From Staphylococcus phage S6, in sequence record LC680885.1: a stretch of 64,000 nt of DNA; one strand, written 5' to 3'. Positions 1,901-50,504 of this stretch are shown one piece after another. The first letter of the stretch is position 1; every line of letters starts with the position of its first letter. Under the pieces are notes generated by a model, which saw only the letters and a list, made by a program, of their open reading frames with translations, was not told the DNA's origin and did no database searches. The position numbers and the translations under genes were made by a program.

Positions 1901-1910
1901 TATATTATAA
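1901..1910 (+). promoter_or_regulatory. TATATTATAA motif (candidate phage-RNAP promoter core)
   Basis: Exact 10-mer in an intergenic region, followed by a hairpin and then SD+ATG. Confidence 0.35.
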
Positions 1911-1914
1911 AAAT

Positions 1915-1951
1915 GAGGTAATGACATTAGCTTGTCATTACCTCTAATATA
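1915..1951 (+). repeat. Conserved hairpin element, copy 1 (gaggtaatgaca-ttagct-tgtcattacctc-taatata)
   Basis: 12 bp perfect stem with a conserved 3' flank. Confidence 0.7.
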
Positions 1952-1978
1952 TTTAAATAATAGGAGAGTGTTTTGGAT

Positions 1979-2407
1979 ATGGAAAAAGTTATAGAAAATA
2001 CGGTAAAAGAATTAAGAGAATTGGCAGTAAAAGAAATAGAGTTTTTTGGTGAACCTGAAATAAACGTATTTCATATTAATGGATATACACTTATAAGCTT
2101 AAGTAGAGATTTTTATCTTTTCACATCAGTTAAAGATGATAATAAAGAGATTTTAAACGCATTATTAAAAGATGATTTATTTAATTATTTTGATGAATAT
2201 GATAATAAATTTGGATTTTTCGTATATTATGAAACTGTTGTAGATAAAAAGACAAATAAAAAAGGAGAATGGAAGAATCTCAAACACTTAATAGATACTT
2301 TTGAATGGGAAAATGGAGACCTTTTAGAATTTGTAAAGGAAGAAAATTTATCAGTGAATGAGTCGTTAAAGAAAAAAGAATTAAGAGAATCTACAGAAGA
2401 ATTATAA
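1979..2407 (+). CDS. Hypothetical acidic protein
   Basis: SD taggagagtg 9 nt upstream of ATG 1979. The ORF track starts at TTG 1973. Confidence 0.6.
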   Translation: MEKVIENTVKELRELAVKEIEFFGEPEINVFHINGYTLISLSRDFYLFTSVKDDNKEILNALLKDDLFNYFDEYDNKFGFFVYYETVVDKKTNKKGEWKNLKHLIDTFEWENGDLLEFVKEENLSVNESLKKKELRESTEEL

Positions 2408-2475
2408 AATTGAGTAGAACATATAAGTATCCTTAAGTTCATACAATTTATATGAATTTAGAAAGGAGTAACTAT

Positions 2476-2625
2476 ATGATTACTTGGTTAATAGCTATAC
2501 TAGTAGTTTTATTAATACTAGGTATTATATTCCGTGGACTGTTAGCAGTAATACCACCTATGGGATGGTCTGGAATTGTAGTTGCAATCTTAGTTATATT
2601 AGTAGTATTTTACCTATTCAGGTAG
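2476..2625 (+). CDS. Small hydrophobic peptide (49 aa, 2 TM), not in the ORF track
   Basis: SD gaaaggag 7 nt upstream of ATG 2476. Translation MITWLIAILVVLLILGIIFRGLLAVIPPMGWSGIVVAILVILVVFYLFR. It ends right at a conserved hairpin. Confidence 0.5.
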   Translation: MITWLIAILVVLLILGIIFRGLLAVIPPMGWSGIVVAILVILVVFYLFR

Positions 2626-2630
2626 ATAAA

Positions 2631-2668
2631 GAGGTAATGGCATATTATATGTCATTACCTCTAATATA
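2631..2668 (+). repeat. Conserved hairpin element, copy 2 (stem with a G·U-compatible substitution)
   Basis: gaggtaatggcat-attat-atgtcattacctc-taatata. Confidence 0.7.
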
Positions 2669-2761
2669 TCGCAATTAAAGTATTTTCAAGCATATATTAT
2701 TTAAATGAGATAATGATTATACCAATCATTATCTTTTAATAAAAAACGGGAGGTATAAGGT

Positions 2762-3052
2762 ATGAAAGAATTAACAAGTTCAGTAGAAAAAGCAGCAGGT
2801 ACAAGTTGGAGTGCGTTAGTAACACATCAAGTTTTTATAGGGTTAGGTTTAGTTTTATTAAGTTTAATCGTATTTGCTATTTTGTATTATGCATTTAAAA
2901 AATTAAATGTCATGAATAACTTATCACCTATCATTGTATTGGTAGTTATTTTAGTTATTGGAATTGATTTGGCTTTATTCGGATACGGTTTAATGCATAT
3001 ATTTAATCCAGGATATTATGCATTACAAGAAATTAAAGAAGTCATTAAATAA
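2762..3052 (+). CDS. Small membrane protein (2-3 TM)
   Basis: SD gggagg upstream. Hydrophobic segments are present. A terminator follows at 3075. Confidence 0.6.
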   Translation: MKELTSSVEKAAGTSWSALVTHQVFIGLGLVLLSLIVFAILYYAFKKLNVMNNLSPIIVLVVILVIGIDLALFGYGLMHIFNPGYYALQEIKEVIK

Positions 3053-3074
3053 ATGATTTCAATGAATCAATACA

Positions 3075-3120
3075 ATAATAGATAATAATTAAAAAAGTTA
3101 TTATCTATTATTATTTTTAA
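3075..3120 (+). terminator. Rho-independent terminator
   Basis: 15 bp stem aataatagataataa/ttattatctattatt followed by attttt. Confidence 0.6.
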
Positions 3121-3140
3121 ACTAGGAGAGTGAAATTGAT

Positions 3141-3488
3141 ATGAATAAAGATTATGAAAAAGTAAAGCTAAATTCTATAAATGAAATATTGGGAGGAGTG
3201 GATATTGAATCTTCTTTATATAGATTTTGGGAAATATATAGCAAGAAATATGATGAATATGTTTATTTAGTTTTTGAAGACATAGATTATGAAAATAATT
3301 ATAACAATACAGTTAATATTAAAGGGATATTTAGAATTGACACTTCTGATAAATCTTTATTATTTGAAGATGAATTTACATTCAATAATGTATTGGTAAC
3401 GGATTCAGCTGAGGATTTTGGTATTAGAGTAGATAACTATGCATATGATGATCTAATAAAACATCTAGAGGAAAATAAAATTATTTAA
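3141..3488 (+). CDS. Hypothetical protein
   Basis: SD ggagagtg followed by ATG. Confidence 0.6.
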   Translation: MNKDYEKVKLNSINEILGGVDIESSLYRFWEIYSKKYDEYVYLVFEDIDYENNYNNTVNIKGIFRIDTSDKSLLFEDEFTFNNVLVTDSAEDFGIRVDNYAYDDLIKHLEENKII

Positions 3489-3509
3489 AATTATAGGAGA
3501 TGAATAGAT

Positions 3510-3797
3510 ATGAGAAAAGAATTAAGTGATTATATTAATAAGGAAAAATTGGATGCATTAAGTATATCTTTACAAGGAGATGATTTTGATTCTTTAGAAC
3601 CAAAAGCTAAAGAAGAAGTATTTGAAAAATACTTAAAATTAGAAAAATTACATGTAGAATTTAGATATGAAGAATCATTAAGTAAAATTGCAGAATCTTT
3701 GAAAGATATTTCACGTAAAGAAAATAATTCAGATTCAAGTAATGTAGATAAAGACGCTATTTTATCAGCTTTAAAGAATTTTGCACGTAAAATTTAA
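3510..3797 (+). CDS. Hypothetical protein, paralog of 3817..4074
   Basis: SD ggagatg. Shares a D-x-L-x-A-I/L-S-x-x-L motif with the next ORF. Confidence 0.55.
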   Translation: MRKELSDYINKEKLDALSISLQGDDFDSLEPKAKEEVFEKYLKLEKLHVEFRYEESLSKIAESLKDISRKENNSDSSNVDKDAILSALKNFARKI

Positions 3798-3816
3798 ATA
3801 GAGAGTAGGTAAAACA

Positions 3817-4074
3817 TTGGATGAAATAAGACAAATAGAAAAATATGTAGATGTAGAAAAATTAAATGCAATAAGTAATTATCTCTTTAGAAGCGATTTT
3901 GAAAGTTCTAGATTAGGAGAAGTTCAAAGAAAAGAAGTTTTAGAAGTTTATATGGTAATGGATAAAAATGACATTCAACATTATTTAGCTAAGAAAATTG
4001 AAGAAAATGGAGATAAACTTTGTAATTCTCTAAGTGAATTTGAAGAATTAATAAAAAGGATAAAGGGGATGTAA
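3817..4074 (+). CDS. Hypothetical protein, paralog of 3510..3797
   Basis: TTG start in the track. Similar N-terminal motif (EKLNAISNYLFRSDFES vs EKLDALSISLQGDDFDS). Confidence 0.45.
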   Translation: MDEIRQIEKYVDVEKLNAISNYLFRSDFESSRLGEVQRKEVLEVYMVMDKNDIQHYLAKKIEENGDKLCNSLSEFEELIKRIKGM

Positions 4075-4080
4075 ATTAAA

Positions 4081-4455
4081 ATGAAAAAATTAATGATTTT
4101 AGGTCTAACAATATTTTTAACAGTTATTTTAGCAGCATGTAGTGGTGAAGAAAAGAACCCTAGTGAAGAAACAGCAAAAGGAGATAGTTATAAATTAATA
4201 TATTACGAAATTTTAAATAATGGAGATAGTGATTATCCTAGAGTGGAAATTGCTTATGAAAATAGAATTAAAGAAGTTCAATCCGAATCTATTGATATCG
4301 ATAATTTAATTGAGCATGTCTCAAAAGATCCAAAAGAAAAACCTAAATTAGTTATTGACGGTGATGAGTATCATGTATATAGACAACCTTACATGACTTA
4401 TAATCAAGAAGATATTGAAGGTGAAGTAGAAAGTAAAGAGGAAGTGAAAAAATAA
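4081..4455 (+). CDS. Lipoprotein
   Basis: Signal peptide ending in the lipobox LAAC|SG. Confidence 0.65.
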   Translation: MKKLMILGLTIFLTVILAACSGEEKNPSEETAKGDSYKLIYYEILNNGDSDYPRVEIAYENRIKEVQSESIDIDNLIEHVSKDPKEKPKLVIDGDEYHVYRQPYMTYNQEDIEGEVESKEEVKK

Positions 4456-5051
4456 TGAAAAAGTTTTCTATGATCCTAGTATCAATAATTACATTATTAG
4501 CATTCGTTAGTCAAGATGCATTAGCTATTGGAAGTTCAACTTCCAGTAGTTCTTCATCTTCTTCATCAGTCAGCTCATCTGCATCGAGATCATCAACTTC
4601 ATCAAGTATGAGTTCTTCATCATCAGCAAGTAGATCAGCTATGCAAAGTAGTATGAATGCTCAAAATAATGCTAACAGTGCAAGTAGAAATAGTTCATTG
4701 AACAGTAGTATGAGTAGAAATAATTCATCATTTTCATTAACTAACCCAAATAGTATGTATAATAGAAATAATCAAATGAATTCATATAATTCACAGCTTA
4801 GACAAAGTAATTATATGAATAATATGTTGATGTACTATTTATTATTTAATGGTATTAATAATCAAAATAACTTAAAGAAACAGAAATCAATTTTAATGAA
4901 TCAAATGAATAAAGATCAAAAGTTATATACAGTGACAATTAAAACTAAAGATAATAAAAAGCAATTGTTAACTGTCACTAAAAAGGATTATGATAAAATT
5001 AAAGAAGGAGATACTGTTAAATATTCTAATAATAAATTAGAAATAAAATAA
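4455..5051 (+). CDS. Secreted low-complexity Ser/Asn/Met-rich protein
   Basis: Signal peptide MKKFSMILVSIITLLAFVSQDALA, followed by a poly-Ser stretch and an N/Q/M-rich region. Start overlaps the upstream stop (ATAATGA). Confidence 0.6.
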   Translation: MKKFSMILVSIITLLAFVSQDALAIGSSTSSSSSSSSSVSSSASRSSTSSSMSSSSSASRSAMQSSMNAQNNANSASRNSSLNSSMSRNNSSFSLTNPNSMYNRNNQMNSYNSQLRQSNYMNNMLMYYLLFNGINNQNNLKKQKSILMNQMNKDQKLYTVTIKTKDNKKQLLTVTKKDYDKIKEGDTVKYSNNKLEIK

Positions 5052-5069
5052 TAAAAGGGAGATTATATT

Positions 5070-5441
5070 ATGAAAAAATTTGGAGAAGTATTTAGCAAAA
5101 AAGAAGCAGCAAAATTATTAATTGAATTAAATAAAAATGCATGGTATCCATCAGAGCCAGGTAGTGCGTTTAGTAGTCTTCTTGTTGATGGGAAAACACT
5201 ATCAAGATACAATTTAGATTTTGAAAAAGAATTCCATGATATGTTCTATTATGATACAGAATCTAATGCTATGGAAGAGGATGAAGACTATATCACTATC
5301 CCTGAAGTTAGTGATGATGTTATTGATTTTAATGCGGTATATGACATCTTGAAAGATCAGGATTTAATAAGCGGAGTAATTAATTTAAATTCGATTATTG
5401 GCAAAAGAATTAATGAATCATTTTGGAGAGTACATGGATAG
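5070..5441 (+). CDS. Hypothetical protein
   Basis: SD aagggag followed by ATG. Confidence 0.6.
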   Translation: MKKFGEVFSKKEAAKLLIELNKNAWYPSEPGSAFSSLLVDGKTLSRYNLDFEKEFHDMFYYDTESNAMEEDEDYITIPEVSDDVIDFNAVYDILKDQDLISGVINLNSIIGKRINESFWRVHG

Positions 5442-5473
5442 AAATAAAAATAATAATAGGAGATGAATTGGAA

Positions 5474-6250
5474 ATGGCAGAAAAAATTCTAAATTTAAAA
5501 ATAGTAGTAAGTAATGATTTAAAAGATGTATATGATACAAAATTATCTGGAGGAGGTTATAAAAATAATGAAATAATGGTATCAGAAAATGATATTTTAA
5601 AAATAAAATTAGATATTAAAGATGAACAAGGCAAAGAATTAAAATTAGAAGACATAAATCACTTAATAAGAGTTGGATCTAATGTTAAAAATATTAAAAG
5701 ACTTTTTGATAGAGTTTATAAAATAGATGAATTTTTTGAAAAAGATGGGAAATACTATTTATATAAAATAAAAGAAAATATGGACACTCAATGTTTAATG
5801 TTTAGCGTATACAATTTGGATTCAGAAATTGATGAAGACGTTTTAATGGACATCTTTATTTATAATGATAGTTTTCATAAGTCAGTATTAGGTGTAGTTA
5901 ACAGATATATTGAAAATAAAAAAGATGAAGATATAGTTAAAAAATTTGTATCTGATATCAGAAGTGATTTTGATGAAAAAGAAATTGAATATACAATAGA
6001 AAATATTGACGATTTACTTTTTAGTAGCAATGTTTTTGATTTATTAAATTACGTACATGAAAATAGTCATACTGACGAAGTTATTGATTGTTTTTCAAGC
6101 GAAATTCAAAAATCTTTAAGTGAATCAGTAAATGCTGAAAGTCGTGATGAAGATTATACTTTTGCTGAAGGCATAAATAATATTTTTGGAATTGCAGGGT
6201 TTTCTCTAACAAATGGTAAAGTTTTTAAATTTAATTACTTAAGTGTATAA
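5474..6250 (+). CDS. Hypothetical acidic protein
   Basis: SD taggagatgaattggaaATG. The track's 5423 TTG start lies inside the upstream gene and is probably wrong. Confidence 0.55.
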   Translation: MAEKILNLKIVVSNDLKDVYDTKLSGGGYKNNEIMVSENDILKIKLDIKDEQGKELKLEDINHLIRVGSNVKNIKRLFDRVYKIDEFFEKDGKYYLYKIKENMDTQCLMFSVYNLDSEIDEDVLMDIFIYNDSFHKSVLGVVNRYIENKKDEDIVKKFVSDIRSDFDEKEIEYTIENIDDLLFSSNVFDLLNYVHENSHTDEVIDCFSSEIQKSLSESVNAESRDEDYTFAEGINNIFGIAGFSLTNGKVFKFNYLSV

Positions 6251-6276
6251 TATTAATATTAGGAGATGAATTAGAT

Positions 6277-7371
6277 ATGGAAAATAACAAAAATGAATTA
6301 ATTAGCAGAGAGAATATTTCACCAGAAGTTTTTAAAAAGGTTGATGAAATTAATATACTTGATAAGAAATCTATTATTGAGTATGGACATGAAGTACAAG
6401 ATAAGTTATCTAAAGAATCAGATAAAGTATTAAAGAATATTAAAGAAAATGATTCTAATGAAAAGATTAATAAAGTATTAGATGATATGTTAGATGTATT
6501 TAACTCATATGATCCACAAAAGATTGATGAAAATATGAAACAAGAAGAAAAAGGTTTCATGGATAAAATTAAATCTATGTTTAATAAAGGTAAAGAAAAC
6601 TTAATCGGTAAAGAATTATCTAAAGTTGATTCAGCTTCAAATAATATGACTTTCATTGAAAGACAATTAAAAGAAAGTAGTTCTTCAGTTGATACTGCAA
6701 ATAAAAATTTAGATAATTTAATTCAATCTAATAAAGATTATTATGAGAACTTAAGTGAATATATTGAAGCAGCTAAATATAAGAAATTAGAGTTAACAGA
6801 TGAAATTCAAAAAGATACTGATGAAGTTAGAAATATTGAAGATGTTGGTGAAAAACAAAATCAAATTCAATTAGTATCTGATAAAGAACAAGGTTTAGAT
6901 AATCTTGATAAACGTATTTATGACTTAAGTACATCATTAGCTTTAGCAGAACAAAATGTATTTGAATTAGAAATGATTAAGAATATCAATTATAGTCTTA
7001 AAGAAAATATTAATAACTCTTTAGTAAATAGTATCCCTATCTGGAAATCTCAATTAACTAAAGCAGTAGTATTGATTCAACAACAACAATCAATTAAAAC
7101 TAATAAAGCTATTAGAGAAGCAACTTCTGATATTTTATTAAGTAACTCTAATATTCTTAAAGATAACGCAGTTCAGATGTATAATGAATCTAATAAATCA
7201 TTTATTGATATTGATGTTCTTAAACAAACTCAAAGTAATATGATTGAAATGACAGAAGATTTAAAACGTATGTCTGAAGAAGCTTATAATGAAAGATTAC
7301 GTGGATATGAAGAACTTAAAGAAATTAAGGAAGATAAAAAAGAATTAGAAAACAAGAAAATAGAAATGTAA
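6277..7371 (+). CDS. Coiled-coil protein, possibly TelA-like (low confidence)
   Basis: SD aggagatgaattagatATG. Long helical and coiled-coil composition. Confidence 0.5.
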   Translation: MENNKNELISRENISPEVFKKVDEINILDKKSIIEYGHEVQDKLSKESDKVLKNIKENDSNEKINKVLDDMLDVFNSYDPQKIDENMKQEEKGFMDKIKSMFNKGKENLIGKELSKVDSASNNMTFIERQLKESSSSVDTANKNLDNLIQSNKDYYENLSEYIEAAKYKKLELTDEIQKDTDEVRNIEDVGEKQNQIQLVSDKEQGLDNLDKRIYDLSTSLALAEQNVFELEMIKNINYSLKENINNSLVNSIPIWKSQLTKAVVLIQQQQSIKTNKAIREATSDILLSNSNILKDNAVQMYNESNKSFIDIDVLKQTQSNMIEMTEDLKRMSEEAYNERLRGYEELKEIKEDKKELENKKIEM

Positions 7372-7387
7372 GAAGGTGTATTATTAC

Positions 7388-8551
7388 ATGTTAGATATTT
7401 TAATCTATTCATTTTCTGGTTTCGCCATTGTAGGGGGCTCTGCAATGGCGATTTATAATGGAAATAAGTTAGTTAAAAAGAAAAAAAGAGTCTCACAAAA
7501 TGAATTAAAACTTAAAGATACAGAAGAATTAATTGATCTCAATGAAACTAAAATAATGGAAAAATTAAATGATTCTTATAAATTAGAAAATGCTTTTGAC
7601 TGTAAGGAAAGATACTACGCTTTACATTATCTATTGAGTCATCCAGAAATGGAATTCTATAAAGAAATAGCCACTCATGTTTATTCAGCTGTTTTAAATG
7701 AAAAAACTAATATTGGAGCTGAATATACTAAAGATTTATTTATTGAAGGGAAATCCTATGATAAAAGATTAGACTTATTGACATTCTCTTTAGTATACAA
7801 AAAAGATAGTAAATTTGAAATTAACAAAGAAAATGGAATTATGGAAGAGTTTAAAGATTTACTTGACACTAATATAGAAGATTTAGAGATGCTAGAAAGA
7901 GAAGGTTTTATATATACGAAAGATGACTCAGGCATATTTTATAAATATTTATTTTTCGGGACTAAAATACTAATCGGTTTAGTTAATTTACATGGTGATT
8001 ATTATATAACTATTATAGATGAAAAAGAAAACGTTTATATTAAAGATATGAAACTTGGTGAAGAGTTGGATGCTTTACAATATTTTGACGGAAGAAGGTT
8101 TTTGTATCATCCATTAGATTTCTTTATATTAGAAGATGGCGAATTACAACTATTAGATCCATATTCATATAATTTAGAACATGTTAACAATAAAAAAATA
8201 ATATTTGATCCTAAGTCTTATGATTCAGAACCTATAGGGAATAAGCGTATAAACTTATATCATGAAGACATAGAATTTAAAAAAGTTCCTTTTAACACTG
8301 AAGGATTATTAAATTATTTAAATAATGATGTTAAAATAGAAAATGATGATTTTATTTATCTTAAAGGAAACAAAGTGGAAAGAAATATAGATAAGAATCA
8401 TTGGTCGAATTTAATAGAAACTAATTATATGATGAATTATAGAGATAAAAAGAAATTCATGAAAAATATTCATAATAAATTAGTAGAAGAAAAAAGAATG
8501 AAAGATATTGAAGAATATAAAAGTTACTCTGAAATAGGGAGAAAGGAGTGA
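7388..8551 (+). CDS. Hypothetical protein
   Basis: SD gaaggtg. The track starts at GTG 7376; ATG 7388 is more likely. Confidence 0.5.
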   Translation: MLDILIYSFSGFAIVGGSAMAIYNGNKLVKKKKRVSQNELKLKDTEELIDLNETKIMEKLNDSYKLENAFDCKERYYALHYLLSHPEMEFYKEIATHVYSAVLNEKTNIGAEYTKDLFIEGKSYDKRLDLLTFSLVYKKDSKFEINKENGIMEEFKDLLDTNIEDLEMLEREGFIYTKDDSGIFYKYLFFGTKILIGLVNLHGDYYITIIDEKENVYIKDMKLGEELDALQYFDGRRFLYHPLDFFILEDGELQLLDPYSYNLEHVNNKKIIFDPKSYDSEPIGNKRINLYHEDIEFKKVPFNTEGLLNYLNNDVKIENDDFIYLKGNKVERNIDKNHWSNLIETNYMMNYRDKKKFMKNIHNKLVEEKRMKDIEEYKSYSEIGRKE

Positions 8552-8558
8552 AGATTCT

Positions 8559-9395
8559 TTGAGTAAAGATTTTTTCTCTCATAATAATGTAAATTATAAA
8601 AAAGATTTAGATAAACAACTTGATGATGATTTAGATAAAATTTACGGTCAACAATCTATGGATACCAATCCTTATGGTCATGTAGGGTTTGTTGATAAGG
8701 ATGTTAGGGAAGCTAAAGAGAAACTTGATAAGCTTAATGATGATTTGAGGCTTAAAGGAAACAGTGCAATGATTGATAGTGATTTAATTCTAAAGGGAAT
8801 TGATAAACGTAAAACTTTAGAAAGGGAAAAATTGAATAGTGTTTATGACAGTATATATGATCTTGGTTCCATAGTTCCTGTAAGTCATAGTTACTATAGA
8901 CAGCTGGATGAGATTAATAAACGTAATACTAATATAAAAAATAACTCTCGTAATTATATTAAAAAAGATTTAGATGAAGAAGCATTGAATAGAAGACAAT
9001 ATAGAAATATGTGGAATAAACCTGTAATGACTTATGAACAAAAATTAATGAATAGATTAGATGAAATAAGAAGTAAGAAAATAACTAATAAAAATAAAGA
9101 AAGATATACTGTTGAAGTTTCAGCTATAATGTATATAACAAGTTGTAAATTTATTCCTGAATTCACTAAAGATGATATAATGAATGCTTATTTTGATGTA
9201 AAAGAAATGATGAACAAAAAAGATAAAATCTTAGGAAATGGTGAAAGTGTAAAAAATTTCACTTTAATATTTGCTAAAGCTATATGGTTTTTAAGAGGAA
9301 ATATTAAAGAAAAGAGTATAATAACAAATCATTCAGCACATGCAATTAATACTAATTTTTTAATAAAAGATTTATATGATCTTAGAGTATTTTAA
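8559..9395 (+). CDS. Hypothetical protein (TTG start)
   Basis: SD gaaaggag 10 nt upstream of TTG 8559. There is no nearby in-frame ATG. Confidence 0.5.
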   Translation: MSKDFFSHNNVNYKKDLDKQLDDDLDKIYGQQSMDTNPYGHVGFVDKDVREAKEKLDKLNDDLRLKGNSAMIDSDLILKGIDKRKTLEREKLNSVYDSIYDLGSIVPVSHSYYRQLDEINKRNTNIKNNSRNYIKKDLDEEALNRRQYRNMWNKPVMTYEQKLMNRLDEIRSKKITNKNKERYTVEVSAIMYITSCKFIPEFTKDDIMNAYFDVKEMMNKKDKILGNGESVKNFTLIFAKAIWFLRGNIKEKSIITNHSAHAINTNFLIKDLYDLRVF

Positions 9396-9414
9396 TTAGG
9401 AGAGTGAAAAAGAT

Positions 9415-9804
9415 ATGGGAAGTTTAATAGGTTTAATTGTGCTAATAGTAAATTCACTATTAGCATCAATTTTTATTTTTAGTAACTTAGGAAAAATGGG
9501 TAAATTTAAAAACAGTTCATGGGTTCCAATTGAAAGAGAGATAAAAAATAGAATGAAATTCTTAATGGCTATTAATTTTATTCTATTTCTATCATCATTA
9601 ATATTATTATTTAAAAATATTATATCGGCTCAAGTATCATTATTATCAATAATTATATTTGGAGGGGTATTTATATTCTTTTTATTTAAATTGATGAGAG
9701 ACAATCAGTATTTTAGTAAGAGTAATAAATTTTATAATACAGTTTATATGATGAGTTTATTTTTATTAACAATAGATGTTTTATTATCATTTTATAATCT
9801 ATAA
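9415..9804 (+). CDS. Membrane protein (4 TM)
   Basis: SD ttaggagagtg. Hydrophobic throughout. Confidence 0.6.
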   Translation: MGSLIGLIVLIVNSLLASIFIFSNLGKMGKFKNSSWVPIEREIKNRMKFLMAINFILFLSSLILLFKNIISAQVSLLSIIIFGGVFIFFLFKLMRDNQYFSKSNKFYNTVYMMSLFLLTIDVLLSFYNL

Positions 9805-9837
9805 AAGATTAAAGAAATATATAAGTTAAATAAAGAT

Positions 9838-9875
9838 GAGGTAATGACAAATTATATGTCATTACCTCTAATATA
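9838..9875 (+). repeat. Conserved hairpin element, copy 3
   Basis: gaggtaatgaca-aattata-tgtcattacctc-taatata. Confidence 0.7.
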
Positions 9876-9893
9876 CTATAAGGAGAGTTTAAA

Positions 9894-10985
9894 ATGAAAA
9901 AATCATTAATAACAGCATCATTATTAAGTACGGTACTACTGTTGGGAGCATGCGGAAACGAAGGATCATCATCAGAGAATAAAGGGTCAAACTTAAAACC
10001 AGAAAAGCAAGAAGAAATTTATTCTAAAGAAGCAAAATTATTAGGTAAAGCAATAAGTAATGAAGATGCTATGGATGATTCTACAAATAAAGTTTCAGAT
10101 GATTTTAAGAAATCTTTAGACAGATATGAAGATAAAACTAAAAATTTAGATAGCGTAGATACTCAAGTTGGTGATTTAACTTTAAGAGTTGGAAAATCTA
10201 TTGAAATCATGAGTGAACGCATGTATGAATTAGATAAGTTCAATAAAGATAATCCAGATAAAGAAATGGAATACAATCTAGCTCTTGTTGATGTTGGAAT
10301 TAATACCGCTCAATCTCTAGAAAGTATAAATGAAGATTATGAATCAATCGATGTATCATATAAAAATGAAATTATCGGTAAGAAAGCTAATGAAGAAGTA
10401 ACTGATGTTTTATCAACTTTCCCAGCATATGAACTTGATGAATTGATAGATGATTATGGAACTGGTATTGTTGGAAATGATGAAACAGATCTAACACAAG
10501 AACAACAAAAAGTATTATCAGACACTAAATATCGAGATGAACTTAAAAAAGAAGTAATGACTCAAGAAGAACCAGACGCTTCTAAAAATGAATATAATGA
10601 ATCTGTGAATATGTTTAATAAATTTGCACCAGAATTCCTTCATTATAAAGAAGTAGATGAAATGGTATCTTCAACAGAAAATAACAATATGATGGATATC
10701 AGAAATGCTGTTGTAAGTGCTAATACAGATGCCGGAGTAGATAGTTATGAAGATATGGAAGAAGATGCTGAATCATTAGAAGATGATACTGAGAGTATCG
10801 AAGATGAAGAAAGATCAGATGACGAAGGATATGATATTGATGGCTGGTCTGCAGAATCTTATAATGAATTAGTAGATGAATATAACACTCTTACTGATGG
10901 TGAAAAAATGGATCACGTAGATGAAGATGTATCTAATATTGAATATGAACAATTAGAAGAGAGAGTTGCAAAATTAGAAGAATAA
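9894..10985 (+). CDS. Acidic lipoprotein
   Basis: Lipobox LLGAC|GN. Very acidic C-terminal half. SD aaggagag. Confidence 0.65.
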   Translation: MKKSLITASLLSTVLLLGACGNEGSSSENKGSNLKPEKQEEIYSKEAKLLGKAISNEDAMDDSTNKVSDDFKKSLDRYEDKTKNLDSVDTQVGDLTLRVGKSIEIMSERMYELDKFNKDNPDKEMEYNLALVDVGINTAQSLESINEDYESIDVSYKNEIIGKKANEEVTDVLSTFPAYELDELIDDYGTGIVGNDETDLTQEQQKVLSDTKYRDELKKEVMTQEEPDASKNEYNESVNMFNKFAPEFLHYKEVDEMVSSTENNNMMDIRNAVVSANTDAGVDSYEDMEEDAESLEDDTESIEDEERSDDEGYDIDGWSAESYNELVDEYNTLTDGEKMDHVDEDVSNIEYEQLEERVAKLEE

Positions 10986-10998
10986 CGGAGGAAATTAA

Positions 10999-12405
10999 AT
11001 GAAGAGAATCTTTAAAAGTTTAACTCTTTATATATTTTTATTTATTTTAGCTTCTTTAACCTTATTTTTAGGATTTAAAGAAGCTATTAATTATATCATA
11101 TTGGGATTATTAACTTTCTTATTAATCCTTTCTTTTTACTTTTTATTAAGTTATGCATATAATTTAATTATATCATTATTTGGATATAAGAAATTAAAAA
11201 GAGATTATGATATTATAGCACCTAAAACTAGATTTTTAATAATGGTAGCTGCTCATAATGAAGAGACTGTTATTAGAGAAACTATTAAAAATCTTAAAAA
11301 GATTAATTATGACAAAAGCATGTTTGATATCTGTATAGTTTCAGATAATTCTACAGATAATACAACAAATATTGCTTTAGAAGAAAATGTTACTGTTGTG
11401 GATACGATTAAAGGAAGATTTAAAAGAGAAGGCGTTGGAAAACCAGCAGGATTACAATATGCATTAAGAGAATTAGGATTTGAAAGTATAAAAAATAAAT
11501 ACGATTTAGTAATGGTATTGGATGCAGATAATTTTGTTAGCCCTAATATATTAAGAGAAGTAAATTCTCAATATATCGCTAAAAATAAACCTGAAGCAAT
11601 TCAAGTCTATTTAGATAGTAAAAATTATGATAGTATGATGTCTTTAGCATATAGTGCAGTATTTTGGACTAATAATAAATTTATTCAAGCGGCTAAATAT
11701 AGATTAGGTTTACCGAATTCAATCGGAGGAACAGGTTTCTCAGTTAGATCAGATTATCTTATTGATAGTGGAGGATTTAACTATGAATCATTAACAGAGG
11801 ATTTAGAAATGGAAGTTGAAATAGTTAGCAATGGTGGAAGAGTTTTATGGAATGATTTTGCGTCTATTTATGATGAAAAACCAGAAGGATTGAAAGTTTC
11901 TATGGTCCAACGTTTGAGATGGGCTAAGGGTCATTTTTACGTAGGATATAAAAATTTCTTTCCATTATTAAAATTATTCGCAAAGACATTTAATATTAAA
12001 TATATAGATAAAATAGTTTTCCTTATGACAATGGGAAGAAGTTTACATTTAGCATTAATGTTATTAGTTATATCATTGCAAGGGTTATATTTATATTTAA
12101 ATAATAAAACAGAAATTATCATAAATAATTTCCATTATCCAACTGTATTACAATTATTAAATGATAATTTCTTATTTTTAGGAATTTTTAATGCTATTCT
12201 ATTAAGTTACAGTTTCTTATTTTTACCATTATATTCTATATATAATAAAATAAAGAGTAAAAATATAATTAAGAATGCAATATCATTTTTATATTATGTG
12301 GTAACTGATTTTATAGTTCAAACTCAAGCAATATTTGTTTGGAAAGAACAAAAGAACTGGGTAAGAACTCCTCATGATAAAAATAAAATAAAAACAGACA
12401 AATAA
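10999..12405 (+). CDS. Processive family-2 glycosyltransferase (polysaccharide-synthase-like), membrane-integrated
   Basis: N-terminal TM segments, VAAHNEE, the DxD motif VLDADN, the Q(R/Q)xRW motif VQRLRWAKG, and 4-5 C-terminal TM segments. Confidence 0.7.
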   Translation: MKRIFKSLTLYIFLFILASLTLFLGFKEAINYIILGLLTFLLILSFYFLLSYAYNLIISLFGYKKLKRDYDIIAPKTRFLIMVAAHNEETVIRETIKNLKKINYDKSMFDICIVSDNSTDNTTNIALEENVTVVDTIKGRFKREGVGKPAGLQYALRELGFESIKNKYDLVMVLDADNFVSPNILREVNSQYIAKNKPEAIQVYLDSKNYDSMMSLAYSAVFWTNNKFIQAAKYRLGLPNSIGGTGFSVRSDYLIDSGGFNYESLTEDLEMEVEIVSNGGRVLWNDFASIYDEKPEGLKVSMVQRLRWAKGHFYVGYKNFFPLLKLFAKTFNIKYIDKIVFLMTMGRSLHLALMLLVISLQGLYLYLNNKTEIIINNFHYPTVLQLLNDNFLFLGIFNAILLSYSFLFLPLYSIYNKIKSKNIIKNAISFLYYVVTDFIVQTQAIFVWKEQKNWVRTPHDKNKIKTDK

Positions 12406-12444
12406 TATTGAATGTGAATAAATAAATTAAAGGAGATATCTATT

Positions 12445-13053
12445 ATGCATATTAAAAAATTTAATGATTCACAATTACATTTTATATCTAAAATGATTGA
12501 CAAGGGTTACAATAATAAAACTATTCTTACACTATTCAAAAAAGAGTTCAATGTAGAAACAATATCTGCATATGTAACACAAGTTCGTAGAGGTCAACAA
12601 GGAAAGAATATTAGCCAAAACTATAAATTTGCTATTGATGGCAACTATCCAACTTATTATGAATGGGTAGAATATTTAATTGATAATGATATCTATTATG
12701 GAACTAAATTTGAAGAATTTGGAAATTATATTAAAACTAAAATTGAAGAAGACGATTTATTCTTAATTACTAAAAGTAATACATTTAAATTGATTGCGTA
12801 TTTACAAGAAACTGATAACGGATTTAAAATAGTAAAATCAATAGATGATAAAGTAATTGATGAAAAATTTACACATGATGTTGAAATTAAAGTTAATAAT
12901 ATGTATAAAGTAAATCTAGAAAATAAAAATTCTTATATACTTTTAAATATTGACATTTCAGATAAATATATGGTACTAATGTATATACTTTTATATTCAA
13001 TTAAAGGCATGGATTCTATAATAAATTATCATTTATATAACGACAAAAATTAA
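12445..13053 (+). CDS. Putative DNA-binding protein; N-terminal HTH-like domain paralogous to 35436..36068
   Basis: QLHFISKMIDKGYNNKTILTLFKKEF...VTQVRRGQQ parallels QVHYIAELIDKGHGNTYILKELKAKF...ITHIRRGEH. Confidence 0.5.
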   Translation: MHIKKFNDSQLHFISKMIDKGYNNKTILTLFKKEFNVETISAYVTQVRRGQQGKNISQNYKFAIDGNYPTYYEWVEYLIDNDIYYGTKFEEFGNYIKTKIEEDDLFLITKSNTFKLIAYLQETDNGFKIVKSIDDKVIDEKFTHDVEIKVNNMYKVNLENKNSYILLNIDISDKYMVLMYILLYSIKGMDSIINYHLYNDKN

Positions 13054-13068
13054 TTAAGGAGAGATTGA

Positions 13069-14068: not shown

Positions 14069-14098
14069 AAAGAAAATAAAAAGATCGGAGAAATAATT

Positions 14099-31108: not shown

Positions 31109-31112
31109 ATAT

Positions 31113-39119: not shown

Positions 39120-39123
39120 ATAT

Positions 39124-39230: not shown

Positions 39231-39476
39231 ATGATATTTAATATTCTAATAGCAATTGCATATGAGATGCTTGTTTCTTTAGGTTTAGGTGTTTCAGCTT
39301 TTTATATATCTTTATTTTTATTAAGATATATAAAAAATAATATTATCAAGAAAGAAATTAAAAATGAAAATAGAAAGTTATTTTATTTTTCATTATTAAT
39401 AGTTATAATATTTATGTCAATAAAATCATACGTTGATATAAAATTAAGTATTATAGAACAAATATTGAAAATGTAA
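39231..39476 (+). CDS. Small membrane protein
   Basis: SD gaagggagg. Two TM segments. Confidence 0.55.
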   Translation: MIFNILIAIAYEMLVSLGLGVSAFYISLFLLRYIKNNIIKKEIKNENRKLFYFSLLIVIIFMSIKSYVDIKLSIIEQILKM

Positions 39477-39503
39477 AAAGCGTAACATAAGATATTTTAA
39501 TTA

Positions 39504-39513
39504 TATATTATAA
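39504..39513 (+). promoter_or_regulatory. TATATTATAA motif inside the repeated AAAGCGTAAC module
   Basis: aaaagcgtaacataagatattttaattatatattataattatgaag. Confidence 0.35.
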
Positions 39514-39570
39514 TTATGAAGATATAATAATATTAATTATATCTTTAATAAAAATAAAGGAGAAATTAAA

Positions 39571-39849
39571 ATGACAGAATTTGAAAATGAAATTAAAGTA
39601 TCAAAAGAGGAGAAGAAGATTAAAAGATTTATTGATCAAGGTATTGATAATTTATCTGATACTGTGGGAGAGAATATTGAAGGTATTCCATTATCTTTAA
39701 CTGATTATTTTCCTAAAATAAAGAAATTAATTATTAAATTAATTGATCGAGAAGAAAGTGATGAAATTAAAATGACAAATGAATTAGGTGAAGTATTTAA
39801 ATTTAATAGAACTTCACACGATATTTATTTAACATCAACTAAATTTTAA
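39571..39849 (+). CDS. Hypothetical small protein
   Basis: SD aaaggagaaattaaaATG. Confidence 0.55.
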   Translation: MTEFENEIKVSKEEKKIKRFIDQGIDNLSDTVGENIEGIPLSLTDYFPKIKKLIIKLIDREESDEIKMTNELGEVFKFNRTSHDIYLTSTKF

Positions 39850-39895: not shown

Positions 39896-40519
39896 ATGAT
39901 TAAAGTCAATGAGCTATTAACAGAAGTTAAGGAAATAAAAACAAATGACAGTTATACGAAATTAATAAATGAGTATAGGGATATTATTAATGAAGAATAT
40001 ATATCTTATAAACCGTTAAAAGATTATTACAATTTTATTATATATTATCTAGAGAAATCTAGAAATCAAGCATTGGAATCTAACAACTTTAATGAATCCA
40101 ATTTAAATATCAAATTATTAATAGAAGATCTAATGATATTAAAAGATATTGTTAAATCTAATATTTTTGATACTAAAGAAGTAATCAGATCTACTGGGTT
40201 TAAATTAACAAATGGTAGTACATTTGATAGAGTTATCAAATACATTAAAGATAAACTAGATGAATTAATTATAGAAATAAATTCAAATAATTATAAATAT
40301 CAAAATATCTATTTCTATCTACCTGAACTAAATAATCTATTGCATAATACAATTCATATAGAACGTGTTTTAGATAAATATAAGAATAATGTAGATATTA
40401 TTAATATAAATAAATATAATTTATTTGAAATGATGCCTTGTAATGATATTATGGATAAAGATGAATTTTATATAATGGTTAATCATTTATATGATTTAGG
40501 TGTTTTAGAAAAAGCGTAA
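39896..40519 (+). CDS. Hypothetical protein
   Basis: The track starts at GTG 39887; ATG 39896 is also possible. SD-like aaaggtgtgg. Confidence 0.5.
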   Translation: MIKVNELLTEVKEIKTNDSYTKLINEYRDIINEEYISYKPLKDYYNFIIYYLEKSRNQALESNNFNESNLNIKLLIEDLMILKDIVKSNIFDTKEVIRSTGFKLTNGSTFDRVIKYIKDKLDELIIEINSNNYKYQNIYFYLPELNNLLHNTIHIERVLDKYKNNVDIININKYNLFEMMPCNDIMDKDEFYIMVNHLYDLGVLEKA

Positions 40520-40537
40520 CATGTAATAAAATAAGTA

Positions 40538-40547
40538 TATATTATAA
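40538..40547 (+). promoter_or_regulatory. TATATTATAA motif inside the repeated AAAGCGTAAC module
   Basis: Same module as at 39.5 kb. Confidence 0.35.
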
Positions 40548-40606
40548 TTATGAAGAAAGATAAAGTATTAATATCTTTCTAAATAAATCAAATGGAGGAA
40601 TTTAAA

Positions 40607-40777
40607 ATGAAAAAGAATTTATTATTAAAATCAGCAGTGGGATTTGGGTTAGGTATTGTATTAGGTGTAGTAAGTAATAAAATTGATGAAATGGTTATGC
40701 AAAAGGAAATGGAAAAGCAAATCTTTAAAAGAGCTTCAGAAATAACTTTTGAACATCCATTCAATAATCTAAAATAA
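40607..40777 (+). CDS. Small membrane peptide, paralog of 41305..41409 and 42033..42227
   Basis: aaATGGAGGaatttaaaATG: the track start 40592 is the ATG inside the SD. KSAVGFGLGIVLGVV. Confidence 0.5.
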   Translation: MKKNLLLKSAVGFGLGIVLGVVSNKIDEMVMQKEMEKQIFKRASEITFEHPFNNLK

Positions 40778-41195: not shown

Positions 41196-41237
41196 AAAGT
41201 TGAATTTGAAAAAGCGTAACGTAAGATATTTTAATTA

Positions 41238-41247
41238 TATATTATAA
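41238..41247 (+). promoter_or_regulatory. TATATTATAA motif inside the repeated AAAGCGTAAC module
   Basis: Same module. Confidence 0.35.
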
Positions 41248-41304
41248 TAATGAAGAAAGAGATTATCATTAACTCTTTCTAATAAATTAAAAGGAGAAAT
41301 TATT

Positions 41305-41409
41305 ATGAAAAACTTAGTATTGAAATTAGTAGCAGGATTTGGATTAGGAATTGTGATGGCAGTTGTTTTAGACAAGATTGAAGAAATGACGTTCTCTAAT
41401 TTAAAATAA
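41305..41409 (+). CDS. Tiny membrane peptide (34 aa), not in the track
   Basis: SD aaaaggagaaattattATG. LVAGFGLGIVMAVV. It ends ...SNLK, inside the 88-bp direct repeat. Confidence 0.4.
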   Translation: MKNLVLKLVAGFGLGIVMAVVLDKIEEMTFSNLK

Positions 41410-44413: not shown

Positions 44414-44421
44414 AATATTAT

Positions 44422-44472
44422 AGTCATGAATCTATTCAAGTAGATTCATGACTATTAATTATATATTTTTTT
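44422..44472 (+). terminator. Rho-independent terminator
   Basis: Stem agtcatgaatcta/tagattcatgact followed by attaattatatattttttt. Confidence 0.6.
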
Positions 44473-45206: not shown

Positions 45207-45263
45207 AAATGAGATTAATAATTTATTATTAATCTCAAATAAAAATTAAAGGTGGAAATAATT

Positions 45264-45782: not shown

Positions 45783-45854
45783 ATATAATATCCCAATGAG
45801 ATGAATTATTCTCATTGGGATTATTTAATTACTTAATTAGGAGATGAAAAGGAT

Positions 45855-48314: not shown

Positions 48315-48331
48315 ATAAGGAGAAATTAAAA

Positions 48332-48790
48332 ATGAGATACTTTAAAGGTATAGTAGCAGGAAAAGACTTTTTCTTAAAAGCAGATAATGAAGAAAATGCC
48401 ATTAAGGAATTAGCATCAAAAGAAATTAATTCTATAGGATCTTTTACAATGTTAAGTAATGAAAAACAGAAATACCTAATAATTTTCTTTAATGAAGATG
48501 AAGATAAATTTGTTGTTGGAAATGGATTAGAATCATATATATCATTAGACAGTCTTAAATCTGAATTAGAATCTAAAGATTTAGAATGTTATTATTTAGA
48601 TTTAGGTAATACAGATAATATCGAGATAAACGGTATTATAAAAAATCAAGAATACACATTAACAGAAATAATAATGGAAAGTATTAAATTAACTATGAAT
48701 GATTTTTATCAACAAGTTATAAATTCTGTATTAACTGAATTAACTGAAAAAGAATACAAAAATTCAATAGTTGTTAAAAATTTTAAATAA
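48332..48790 (+). CDS. YK-tail family member B1
   Basis: Tail TEKEYKNSIVVKNFK. Confidence 0.55.
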   Translation: MRYFKGIVAGKDFFLKADNEENAIKELASKEINSIGSFTMLSNEKQKYLIIFFNEDEDKFVVGNGLESYISLDSLKSELESKDLECYYLDLGNTDNIEINGIIKNQEYTLTEIIMESIKLTMNDFYQQVINSVLTELTEKEYKNSIVVKNFK

Positions 48791-48809
48791 CTAGGAAGGA
48801 ATAAAAATA

Positions 48810-49280
48810 GTGAGAAATAAAAAAAGAAGCATAGATAGTTTGATAAATAATAATCTAGAATTACCAATTGAGATTACTGAAAATTATATAAATAATTTTA
48901 TATACAAATCATTAACTGCTATAAATAAGAAAAAAGAAATAAAACCAAATCAAACTTATATAATTAATCATAAGAATGAATTATTTAATAAAGCAGATAA
49001 TTTCATAAATTGTATTTTAGAATTATTAAAAGGTGATGTGGGTACTTTAATAGATAAAAAAGATTTAAAGTTAAAAAGAAATGTAAAGAAAGACAATATA
49101 AGTAATTGTCTTACAATATATACTATTGTAGAAACTTTAACTTACAATAATTCTATAACAATGATGATGGTAAAAAATGTAAATAATACCAATAAGGAAG
49201 TAACTGGTGAACTAATATTTGATATTAATATAAGTGATAAATTAGGTAAAGATAATTACAATGAAAATATTTATATTTAA
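48810..49280 (+). CDS. Hypothetical protein (GTG start)
   Basis: ggaaggaataaaaataGTG. Confidence 0.4.
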   Translation: MRNKKRSIDSLINNNLELPIEITENYINNFIYKSLTAINKKKEIKPNQTYIINHKNELFNKADNFINCILELLKGDVGTLIDKKDLKLKRNVKKDNISNCLTIYTIVETLTYNNSITMMMVKNVNNTNKEVTGELIFDINISDKLGKDNYNENIYI

Positions 49281-49294
49281 TTACTATTTAAATA

Positions 49295-49306
49295 TATATT
49301 ATATAA
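49295..49306 (+). promoter_or_regulatory. TATATTATaTAA variant motif
   Basis: Intergenic; ~25 nt upstream of the SD. Confidence 0.3.
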
Positions 49307-49341
49307 ATGAAGTTAATTAAAATACAGGAGATGAATTGGAT

Positions 49342-49683
49342 ATGTTAAACGATACTAAAAAGATTTTAGACAGAATATACGACAAAATAAATGGTGATTT
49401 AATTGTTATTTCAGAGTGTAAAGATCTATTTGATAAGGAATTAAATTACACTTTAACTGAAGGTAATGAAGAAACAACAAATCTTGATTATTTGGCAGAT
49501 TCTTTAATTGTAGTTGCTTCAGATATATTTACTTTAAAAGAAGTACTTAATATTGACGAAGAAACTATTAATAATGAACTATTAGCAGAATTTAAACTAA
49601 GCTATAGAATGATACAAAATTTTCATATGAAATTAGAATTAAATAGTTATAAATTAAAAAAGATTAAAACCTCGGTTGAATAA
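49342..49683 (+). CDS. Hypothetical protein
   Basis: SD ggagatgaattggatATG. The track start is TTG 49336. Confidence 0.55.
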   Translation: MLNDTKKILDRIYDKINGDLIVISECKDLFDKELNYTLTEGNEETTNLDYLADSLIVVASDIFTLKEVLNIDEETINNELLAEFKLSYRMIQNFHMKLELNSYKLKKIKTSVE

Positions 49684-49702
49684 ATATAGGAGATGATTAG
49701 GA

Positions 49703-50188
49703 ATGAATTATTTAAAGAATGAAAAAGGGGAGGTCTTTCCAGTCAATGAAGAAGGAATGGAGAATATTATATTCTTTCTTCTAGACTACTCACAGAAAAA
49801 TGATTATAACACAATGAATTTGATTAAAGAGATAAATGATCACGTGATGAAAGGCGAAAATATAAGTAATAAATTTATTAATGAAAAGACAAAAGAAACG
49901 ATATTAACATTAGGTAAAGTAAAAGGTAATTTAACTAATGAATTAGCTAGAAGTGGTTATATAGTTAATTTCTCTAGAAATAAAATATCACTATCGATAT
50001 ATGTAAAAAATAATAGTTTTAAATTAGTAAGAATTTCAGATCATAATATTAATAAAAAAATAAATAAAAAAGGTGTAATCAGTAATAGATTTGACGGACA
50101 ATTAGTATGTAAAAATAATCTAGTTAAATCTTCTGATTTGAAAAAGCATGGAATTGATATTAATGAAGGAATATATTATTTAGAATAG
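49703..50188 (+). CDS. Hypothetical protein
   Basis: SD taggagatgattaggaATG. Confidence 0.55.
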   Translation: MNYLKNEKGEVFPVNEEGMENIIFFLLDYSQKNDYNTMNLIKEINDHVMKGENISNKFINEKTKETILTLGKVKGNLTNELARSGYIVNFSRNKISLSIYVKNNSFKLVRISDHNINKKINKKGVISNRFDGQLVCKNNLVKSSDLKKHGIDINEGIYYLE

Positions 50189-50201
50189 GATGAAACTATA
50201 T

Positions 50202-50483
50202 ATGAAAAAGATAATAATGTTTTTAGGTATTTTGTTACTAACAACGGTATTGGTCGGTTGTGGAGAAAGTGTTGATTCAAAAGATAAAAAAGATTCAATC
50301 AAAACAGTAACTATTTATAGTAAAGACGGTAAAGTATTACATCAATATGAAGGAAAAGTTAGTGCTGAGAGAGTAACGGATAACAAATTTACTAAAATTG
50401 ATATAGACGGTAAGAAATTAAGAGTTGTAAATGCAGATGTAGTTATTGAAGAGAAAGGTATTGAGAAATTTGAAACAAAATAA
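50202..50483 (+). CDS. Lipoprotein
   Basis: Lipobox VLVGC|GES. The track start 50190 lies in the SD region (aggATGaaactatatATG). Confidence 0.6.
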   Translation: MKKIIMFLGILLLTTVLVGCGESVDSKDKKDSIKTVTIYSKDGKVLHQYEGKVSAERVTDNKFTKIDIDGKKLRVVNADVVIEEKGIEKFETK

Positions 50484-50494
50484 AGATTAAGTAT

Positions 50495-50504
50495 ATATTA
50501 TAAT
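50495..50504 (+). promoter_or_regulatory. TATATTATAA motif
   Basis: tatattataattatgaagaaagatatt..atatctttc hairpin. Confidence 0.35.

Follow-up and report, generated by a model that had tools for sequence, protein, structure and literature searches.

Putative AR9-type early promoters of Staphylococcus phage S6 and a conserved hairpin at their predicted start sites

Why does one short, AT-rich sequence recur between the plus-strand genes of a Staphylococcus jumbo phage, and what follows it in the transcript? We studied this question in 64,000 nucleotides (nt) of Staphylococcus phage S6 (LC680885.1), a stretch that we call the window and whose numbering we use for coordinates. An earlier note on this DNA had singled out the 10-mer TATATTATAA as a candidate early promoter for a phage RNA polymerase (RNAP), typically followed by a hairpin. 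The explanation that best accounts for our data as a whole, and that we consider likely, is that the sites are early promoters of the type known from Bacillus phage AR9, fused to a hairpin at position +1 that may protect the transcript.

The window is very AT-rich (approximately 24% G+C), and the recurrence of the motif might simply reflect low complexity. The bare 8-mer TATATTAT is in fact common elsewhere, with 12 further occurrences on the plus strand and 17 on the minus strand, mostly in coding sequence. The 10-mer TATATTATAA occurs in 14 exact copies, every one on the plus strand, versus a mean of 5.3 and a maximum of 12 on both strands of dinucleotide shuffles (0 of 100 reach 14), so the impression that it recurs beyond chance was correct. 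Eleven of the exact copies are intergenic. The other three (20437, 24605 and 37051) lie inside open reading frames (ORFs) and lack both an AAATA 5′ flank and a T-G at N5-N6. They had been missed when the motif was described as always intergenic, a description that fits the extended motif presented below (14 of 14 sites) but fails for the 10-mer alone.

The conserved unit is longer than 10 nt and reads AAATA-TATATTAT-N5-T-G, i.e., AAATATATATTAT-N5-T-G. It is present at all 11 intergenic exact copies and at variants at 2693, 31112 and 49295, making 14 sites (Table 1). The 11 exact positions that had been listed (under a count of “ten”) are right, except that the real copy given as 50495 is at 50494; the three variants are likewise all real members, with the one given as 31113 starting at 31112. 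When one mismatch is allowed, AAATATATATTAT-N5-TG has 15 matches in the window compared with 0.38 expected and a maximum of 2 in 100 shuffles. Thirteen of these 15 matches are intergenic promoter-class sites, and the 14th site, at 2688, has two mismatches. Across the 14 sites, the 13-mer is exact in 7, has one mismatch in 6 and two mismatches in 1, while the TATATTAT core is invariant. The T-G at N5-N6 is present in every site, and its G is 6 nt downstream of the element.

All 14 sites are on the plus strand, in non-coding DNA and ahead of plus-strand genes, as the earlier note had stated for its motif. Equal motif density in coding regions or on both strands, which it had named as a refutation, is not seen for the extended motif (14 intergenic plus-strand sites versus 0 on the minus strand), and non-coding DNA makes up just 8.9% of the window. 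We applied the same motif definition to the syntenic regions of SA1, AH12, PB50, Madawaska and Machias. With the window included, the six phages total 76 sites, all of which are on the gene strand (0 on the opposite strand). The shuffles, together with conservation in five relatives and in AR9, refute chance as the explanation, and we assign it a negligible probability.

The identity of the polymerase is suggested by AR9. In that phage, 41 early transcription start sites were mapped using dRNA-seq and primer extension, with the consensus AAATATATATTAT-(6N)-G+1 (Lavysh et al. 2017, PMC5312081). AR9 early transcripts need no new protein synthesis and were consequently assigned to the virion RNAP, and virion RNAP promoters of phiKZ-related phages are described as AT-rich with a start site 6 nt downstream of the element (PMC5312081). 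According to a review, bioinformatic searches can detect motifs of this kind in all jumbo phages that encode RNAPs (PMC7598289). The 13-mers are annotated as early promoters in the AR9 GenBank record. The 13-nt element in S6 is identical to that of AR9 letter for letter, and the spacing to the conserved G is also identical. Moreover, both phages have the element on the gene strand upstream of non-structural genes, have a genome with two multisubunit phage RNAPs and share the gene order UvsX, non-virion RNAP beta-C, ligase, HU (on the opposite strand) and non-virion RNAP beta-N. They differ between HU and non-virion RNAP beta-N, where an early promoter is present in AR9 but missing from the Staphylococcus phages.

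By analogy with AR9, it is very likely that the 14 sites are early promoters of the virion RNAP. Use by this polymerase and initiation at the G are what we infer, with the start site and the early timing extrapolated from AR9. The proposal of an early promoter for an AR9-type virion RNAP is supported by identity to the AR9 consensus, by clade membership and by the RNAP genes, and the resemblance to a published consensus is borne out for AR9 specifically (PMC5312081). The promoter is already known for this clade, whose Staphylococcus jumbo phages are AR9/PBS1-like with both virion and non-virion multisubunit RNAPs. In MarsHill, a phage of the same clade, MEME had revealed the same TATATTAT-centred motif upstream of 29 genes, and its use was ascribed to the virion RNAP (Korn et al., bioRxiv 10.1101/2020.12.14.422802).

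With its TATTAT and TATAAT-like hexamers, the motif could be taken for a -10-like element in host promoters, of the sigma-A type, that S. aureus RNAP uses. A generic sigma-70 scan does find many such matches in the AT-rich window, but their number (176) is no higher than that in shuffled sequence (185). Also, the conserved block is 13 nt long with a fixed T-G 5-6 nt downstream, and its flanks have no conserved -35 element. Since the scan is no richer than shuffles and the block matches, letter for letter, the AR9 element, whose transcription needs no new protein synthesis and is ascribed to the virion RNAP (PMC5312081), we rejected host sigma-A promoters as a very improbable interpretation.

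A hairpin shortly after the motif, as the earlier note had described, is confirmed at 12 of the 14 sites. These hairpins lie in the first 45 nt and have stems of 9-13 base pairs (bp) with folding free energies (dG) of -7.6 to -19.1 kcal/mol. Such energies are reached in approximately 7% of background windows (binomial P = 6e-13). Eight stems start at the predicted +1 and four at +3, leaving 0 or 2 unpaired 5′ nt. In the six phages, a hairpin is found at 62 of the 76 sites, and the number of unpaired 5′ nt, given the inferred start, is 0 in 46, 1 in 2, 2 in 12, 3 in 1 and 4 in 1. Thus, the stem start is fixed relative to the predicted start site (standard deviation 0.9 nt), while the distance from stem to start codon varies from 24 to 45 nt, which indicates that the hairpin is tied to the start site and not to the ribosome-binding site. 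The stem is followed by an A-rich spacer of approximately 25-45 nt, a Shine-Dalgarno sequence and the ATG. Leaders with a hairpin are 53-77 nt long, and the two leaders without one are 18 and 27 nt.

The stems are conserved as structures. When 13 sequences of the GAGNTAATGA stem family are aligned, 98.1% of cells are paired versus 87.6% in shuffles (0 of 500 reach the observed value), and 6 of 12 pairs show compensatory changes on both sides (slid controls, 31-62%). Among orthologous leaders of the non-virion RNAP beta-C gene, pair 9-20 is U-A, A-U or G-C depending on the phage, and 98% of cells pair. In addition, the sense fold is more stable than the antisense fold in 47 hairpins versus 9 (p=6e-8). 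Greater stability of the sense strand is a signature of G-U pairs and implies that selection acts on the transcript. We therefore consider it likely that the hairpin acts as RNA, at the 5′ end of the transcript.

Inverted repeats could also act in duplex DNA, either as operators for a dimeric regulator of early shutoff or as cruciform or hairpin promoter elements of the N4 type. The palindromes of 9-13 bp do cover +1 to +30, where a protein on the DNA would stand in the way of the polymerase. However, the stem sequences differ widely from site to site while pairing is kept, a poor fit to one DNA-binding specificity, and the sense-strand bias that arises from G-U pairs matters only in RNA or in one DNA strand. 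AR9 promoters have the same recognition element and no repeats. In phage N4, the promoter hairpin lies upstream of the start site, so the S6 hairpin is on the wrong side of the start for an N4-like promoter, which we rejected. Operators and cruciforms were rejected because of the retained pairing and the strand bias, and a function in DNA overall seems highly unlikely.

In AR9, none of the 17 annotated early promoters has a hairpin by the same criteria (dG of at most -5 kcal/mol and at most 4 unpaired 5′ nt), and there is one weak, borderline stem. The median leader is 34 nt in AR9 versus 55 nt in the window. Accordingly, the leader of the Staphylococcus clade looks like an AR9-type leader into which a module of approximately 28 nt was inserted at +1. 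In Listeria phage LPJP1, approximately 2 of 6 candidate early promoters have a +1 hairpin, and these partial occurrences indicate that the feature is neither strictly confined to the Staphylococcus clade nor general.

Using Rfam at its gathering thresholds, we found no known RNA family at any of the hairpins; the sole match in the window is the group II intron piece at 1449-1532. No mention of the hairpins was found in four publications: the MarsHill preprint, the RNAP review and the papers on AR9 and DC4. The MarsHill preprint differs from our description in giving the motif as a logo only, and the words hairpin, stem-loop and terminator are absent from its text. The covarying hairpin at +1 is a well-supported structural feature, and we found no description of it in these four publications.

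A possible role is suggested by RNA decay. In Firmicutes, 5′-end-dependent decay uses a pyrophosphohydrolase that prefers single-stranded ends, followed by the monophosphate-dependent 5′ exonuclease RNase J1 (PMC3997798). For Bacillus RppH, a minimum of 2 unpaired 5′ nt is required and 3 or more are preferred, RNase Y cuts AU-rich single-stranded RNA beside downstream structure, and 5′ secondary structure has long been known to stabilise mRNA (PMC3997798). The 0-2 unpaired 5′ nt in the window, compared with this requirement of RppH, fit a protective role. Under the mechanism that we propose, the injected multisubunit virion RNAP would read the AT-rich AAATATATATTAT, centred near -13, and initiate at the invariant G after the invariant T, 6 nt downstream of the element, as in AR9. 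The nascent RNA would at once fold into a 5′-terminal stem-loop whose first paired base is +1, or sometimes +3. With this stem in place, neither the host RNA pyrophosphohydrolase nor RNase J1 would find a single-stranded 5′ end to act on, and the early mRNAs would last longer. We also infer that cleavage of read-through transcripts within the AU-rich promoter sequence would leave them with this protected 5′ end as well. In our estimation, stabilisation of early mRNA has about an even chance of being the role of the hairpin.

Stabilising 5′ stem-loops have precedents. One is the leader of T7 gene 10. Others are E. coli ompA and papA and the B. subtilis aprE leader (PMC3997798). Like the S6 leaders, such leaders have a stem-loop with few unpaired 5′ nt, then a single-stranded spacer and a strong ribosome-binding site. 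By contrast, they are single leaders tested experimentally, while in S6 a whole promoter class is involved and the effect on stability is predicted.

Several observations weigh against promoters fused to a protective +1 hairpin. The hairpin is missing at 2 of the 14 sites in the window and at 14 of the 76 in the clade, although the SA1 and Machias orthologues of one hairpin-less site (49290) have a short +1 hairpin. The covariation sets are small, and one of them, set A2, mixes paralogous and orthologous sites. In the searchable literature, we found no study that maps the transcripts of a Staphylococcus jumbo phage. The host of AR9 also has RNase J1, yet AR9 lacks the hairpins, and a protective role is thus not obligatory. 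Finally, promoters abut upstream stop codons, leaving no space for a separate terminator; the one clearly hairpin-less promoter, at 39194, sits just behind a canonical U-tract terminator (39119-39162); and the Machias GenBank record labels a hairpin, GAGGTAATGACATACAATTTGTCATTACCTC, the same as that at 31126-31156 in the window, as a “terminator”.

The last three points would be expected if the hairpins were terminators or attenuators of the upstream unit. The sites would then be promoter-terminator cassettes like the PeSLs of T4-like phages, insulating units and possibly mediating gene shuffling. PeSL stem-loops were shown to terminate (PMC2839356), and S6 also has cassettes of approximately 100 nt, with 73% column identity, that flank unrelated small ORFs at 39.5-41.3 kb and 50.5 kb. 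Nevertheless, the S6 stem lies wholly downstream of the predicted +1 and would terminate the promoter’s own transcript, while PeSLs avoid self-termination by having the stem between the -35 and -10 boxes or over them (PMC2839356). A terminator also has no need of the tight register between stem start and +1, which is exact in 46 of 62 hairpins. Moreover, the 3′ tails of the clade hairpins are A-rich, with 2.8 T on average among the first 8 nt and mostly A at positions 2, 3, 5 and 7. By contrast, bona fide terminators in the same genomes have T-runs, and the canonical ones in the window, e.g., 39119-39162 and ~50865-50895, have runs of 7-9 T. These T-run terminators are a class clearly distinct from the +1 hairpins. 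We therefore regard termination as an unlikely primary explanation, and terminator or attenuator activity is possibly a second function of the hairpin.

The Machias “terminator” (MW349128.1 272146-272177, or 34147-34178 in our contig L127) is directly downstream of an exact early-promoter 13-mer and has no U-tract. It occupies the syntenic intergenic position, and its sequence is identical to that of 31126-31156 in the window.

The four cassettes in the window share a repeat, AAAAAGCGTAAC...TATATATTATAATTATGAAGA..., with the above column identity holding over approximately 110 nt. The ORFs between them are small and have no detectable similarity to one another, and gene content between cassettes varies among relatives. 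PeSLs (Arbiol et al. 2010, PMC2839356) are similarly intergenic cassettes of approximately 100 nt that comprise an early promoter along with a stem-loop, repeated between small, unrelated ORFs of unknown function. However, PeSL promoters are of the sigma-70 type and used by host RNAP, whereas the S6 promoter is predicted to serve a phage RNAP. PeSL stems are upstream of the start, G/C-rich and efficient terminators, whereas those of S6 are AU-rich, downstream of +1 and without a U-tract. By analogy, the S6 arrangement is reminiscent of PeSL-mediated shuffling in T4-like phages. A more speculative idea, which we hold to be improbable in its entirety, is that promoter and hairpin form a clade-specific, PeSL-like cassette for a phage multisubunit RNAP. 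Here, the +1 stem would be a cap-like shield against 5′-end-dependent decay (by RppH and RNase J1 or by a phage-induced host-shutoff nuclease), and the cassettes would also be recombination sites that shuffle small early genes.

Gene orientation in the window is plus up to ~55.7 kb and minus beyond. As had been noted, the early motif was not found upstream of the minus-strand late block (tail-fibre/holin). The AR9 consensus for late promoters, used by the non-virion RNAP, is AACA-N6-TA. This pattern occurs in two intergenic regions of the late block, approximately 40-50 nt upstream of the start of the tail-fibre gene (59216) and of a gene starting at 62150. Given that the motif is short, its assignment as a late promoter in S6 is only suggestive.

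A reverse copy of the motif upstream of the minus-strand HU gene had been cited as evidence that the motif tracks gene orientation. The sequence, AAAAATATATTAT, is indeed present (32275-32263, minus strand). However, it has an A in place of the T-G at the start position, and unrelated sequence replaces it in four of the five relatives compared (Machias, AH12, PB50 and SA1). We rejected it as evidence of orientation tracking on these grounds, and a promoter function is doubtful judging from the sequence.

The recombinase (UvsX-like) gene and the operon of non-virion RNAP beta-N and beta′-N have no early motif and instead have TGnTATAAT upstream, in agreement with the earlier note. In both places, this sequence is part of a second element, CTAGCTTTTTT-N13/14-(TGn)TATAAT-N5-7-GTTATRG, which occurs only ahead of this gene and this operon. 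It hardly varies among SA1, AH12, PB50, Madawaska and Machias, despite a coding-DNA identity of just 80-94%, and is flanked by the short inverted repeats TTTAGAAAA / TTTTCTAAA. In AR9, TTTTATGTTATAATA is found upstream of the gene for non-virion RNAP beta-N. Two possibilities for the second element are an extended -10 promoter of the host sigma-A type and a separate class of phage promoter.

We now note further properties of the window and its relatives. By megablast, the window belongs to a Staphylococcus jumbo phage, with 97% identity to PALS_2 and vB_SauM-UFV_DC4, 91-94% to LY01, MarsHill (~92% over the query) and Madawaska, and 81-85% to SA1, AH12, PB50 and Machias. Five virion RNAP subunits were reported for the clade (Korn et al., bioRxiv 10.1101/2020.12.14.422802); apart from the beta-N exon, these are outside the window.

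This exon is preceded by a match to group II intron domain V/VI (RF00029, 66 bits), on the plus strand. The match directly follows a 449-aa ORF with a DUF4379 treble-clef zinc-finger domain and no reverse-transcriptase match, and the coding sequence of virion RNAP beta-N picks up again after it, at ~1533. The region 97-1532 thus resembles a group II intron that carries an unusual ORF and interrupts a phage RNAP gene.

One further early promoter with a hairpin, GGAGTAATGATGATTAACTTCATCATTACTCT, lies upstream of the ligase region in AH12, PB50 and Machias. It is absent from the window, and promoter content therefore varies among close relatives. Promoter-like sites of the form TATATTAT-N5-[TA]G also occur in AT-rich jumbo phages at a greater distance, namely Listeria phage LPJP1 and two jumbo contigs from IMG/VR, L007 and L069. 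When IMG/VR was scanned for AAATATATATTAT-N5-TG, the matches listed were mostly single chance matches in unrelated AT-rich contigs. L007 and L069 have several sites each, some with a +1 hairpin, but are too patchy for use.

Table 1 Features of the window and related sites in other phages; promoters and their +1 positions are predictions
Feature	Position (strand)	+1	Hairpin	Context
Promoter, exact AAATATATATTAT	1896-1908 (+)	G 1915	1915-1944, 12 bp	Directly after last exon of virion RNAP beta-N; downstream ATG 1979
Promoter, AAGCATATATTAT, 2 mismatches	2688 (+)	G 2707	2707-2735	Heads long operon 2762-14787
Promoter, exact 13-mer	16676 (+)	G 16695	16695-16722	Ahead of non-virion RNAP beta-C
Promoter, AAGTATATATTAT	19534 (+)	G 19553	19553-19584	Heads operon 19630-29352, including NAD-dependent ligase
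Promoter, exact	29363 (+)	G 29382	29384-29412, 2 unpaired 5′ nt	
Promoter, exact	31107 (+)	G 31126	31126-31156	Overlaps stop codon of upstream ORF ending 31108
Promoter, AAATTTATATTAT	37142 (+)	G 37161	37161-37189	Directly after primase gene (end 37139)
Promoter, AGATATATATTAT	39194 (+)	G 39213	None	18-nt leader straight into Shine-Dalgarno
Promoter, AATTATATATTAT	39499 (+)	G 39518	39518-39546	~100-nt cassette family
Promoter, AAGTATATATTAT	40533 (+)	G 40552	40554-40580	Cassette family
Promoter, AATTATATATTAT	41233 (+)	G 41252	41254-41280	Cassette family; then 34-codon ORF from 41305
Promoter, exact	45192 (+)	G 45211	45211-45236	Overlaps stop codon of ORF ending 45193
Promoter, exact	49290 (+)	G 49309	None	27-nt leader
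Promoter, AAGTATATATTAT	50489 (+)	G 50508	50510-50535	Cassette family
Cassette	39470-39575 (+)			
Cassette	40500-40610 (+)			
Cassette	41200-41308 (+)			
Cassette	50455-50565 (+)			
Intrinsic terminator, T-run	14905-14940			Bounds plus-strand unit
Intrinsic terminator, T-run	31902-31934			Bounds plus-strand unit; bidirectional, between convergent genes
Intrinsic terminator, T-run	39119-39162			Bounds plus-strand unit
Intrinsic terminator, T-run	44420-44455			Bounds plus-strand unit
Intrinsic terminator, T-run	45790-45821			Bounds plus-strand unit
Intrinsic terminator, T-run	~50865-50895			Bounds plus-strand unit
Intrinsic terminator, T-run	~54920-54960			Bounds plus-strand unit
Second promoter-like element	15230-15275 (+)			Ahead of UvsX-like gene
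Second promoter-like element	32305-32345 (+)			Ahead of beta-N/beta′-N operon
Intergenic region with AACA-N6-TA	59217-59278 (-)			Late block
Intergenic region with AACA-N6-TA	62151-62423 (-)			Late block
ORF with DUF4379	97-1446			449 aa
Group II intron domain V/VI match	1449-1532 (+)			RF00029
Virion RNAP beta-N, last exon	1533-1894			Homologous to last exon annotated “viral RNA polymerase beta subunit, N-terminal” in Madawaska, Machias and PB50
RecA/UvsX-like ORF	15305-16606			
Non-virion RNAP beta-C ORF	16759-18900			Rpb2 domain
HU-type protein ORF	31941-32243 (-)			
Non-virion RNAP beta′-N ORF	34057-35367			Rpb1 domain
Extra promoter, GGAGTAATGATGATTAACTTCATCATTACTCT	L003 21990 (-)			AH12
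Extra promoter, GGAGTAATGATGATTAACTTCATCATTACTCT	L004 23111 (-)			PB50
Extra promoter, GGAGTAATGATGATTAACTTCATCATTACTCT	L127 29113 (+)			Machias
Distant +1 hairpin	LPJP1 32121 (-)			Listeria phage
Distant +1 hairpin	LPJP1 13531 (-)			Listeria phage
Distant +1 hairpin	L007 3581			IMG/VR jumbo contig
Distant +1 hairpin	L069 5965			IMG/VR jumbo contig

That the AR9 early-promoter code is unchanged in Staphylococcus jumbo phages adds little, as this was already proposed for MarsHill. The 14 sites do provide precise predicted starts of early transcription units for the annotation of PALS_2-like genomes, and at least one “terminator” in public records, that of Machias, is a hairpin downstream of an early promoter’s predicted start. 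The leaders may also be a source of compact promoter-leader parts for expression from phage RNAPs. For the biology of these phages, AR9 and the Staphylococcus clade form a natural contrast for studying what allows the mRNAs of an injected polymerase to persist in Gram-positive cells.

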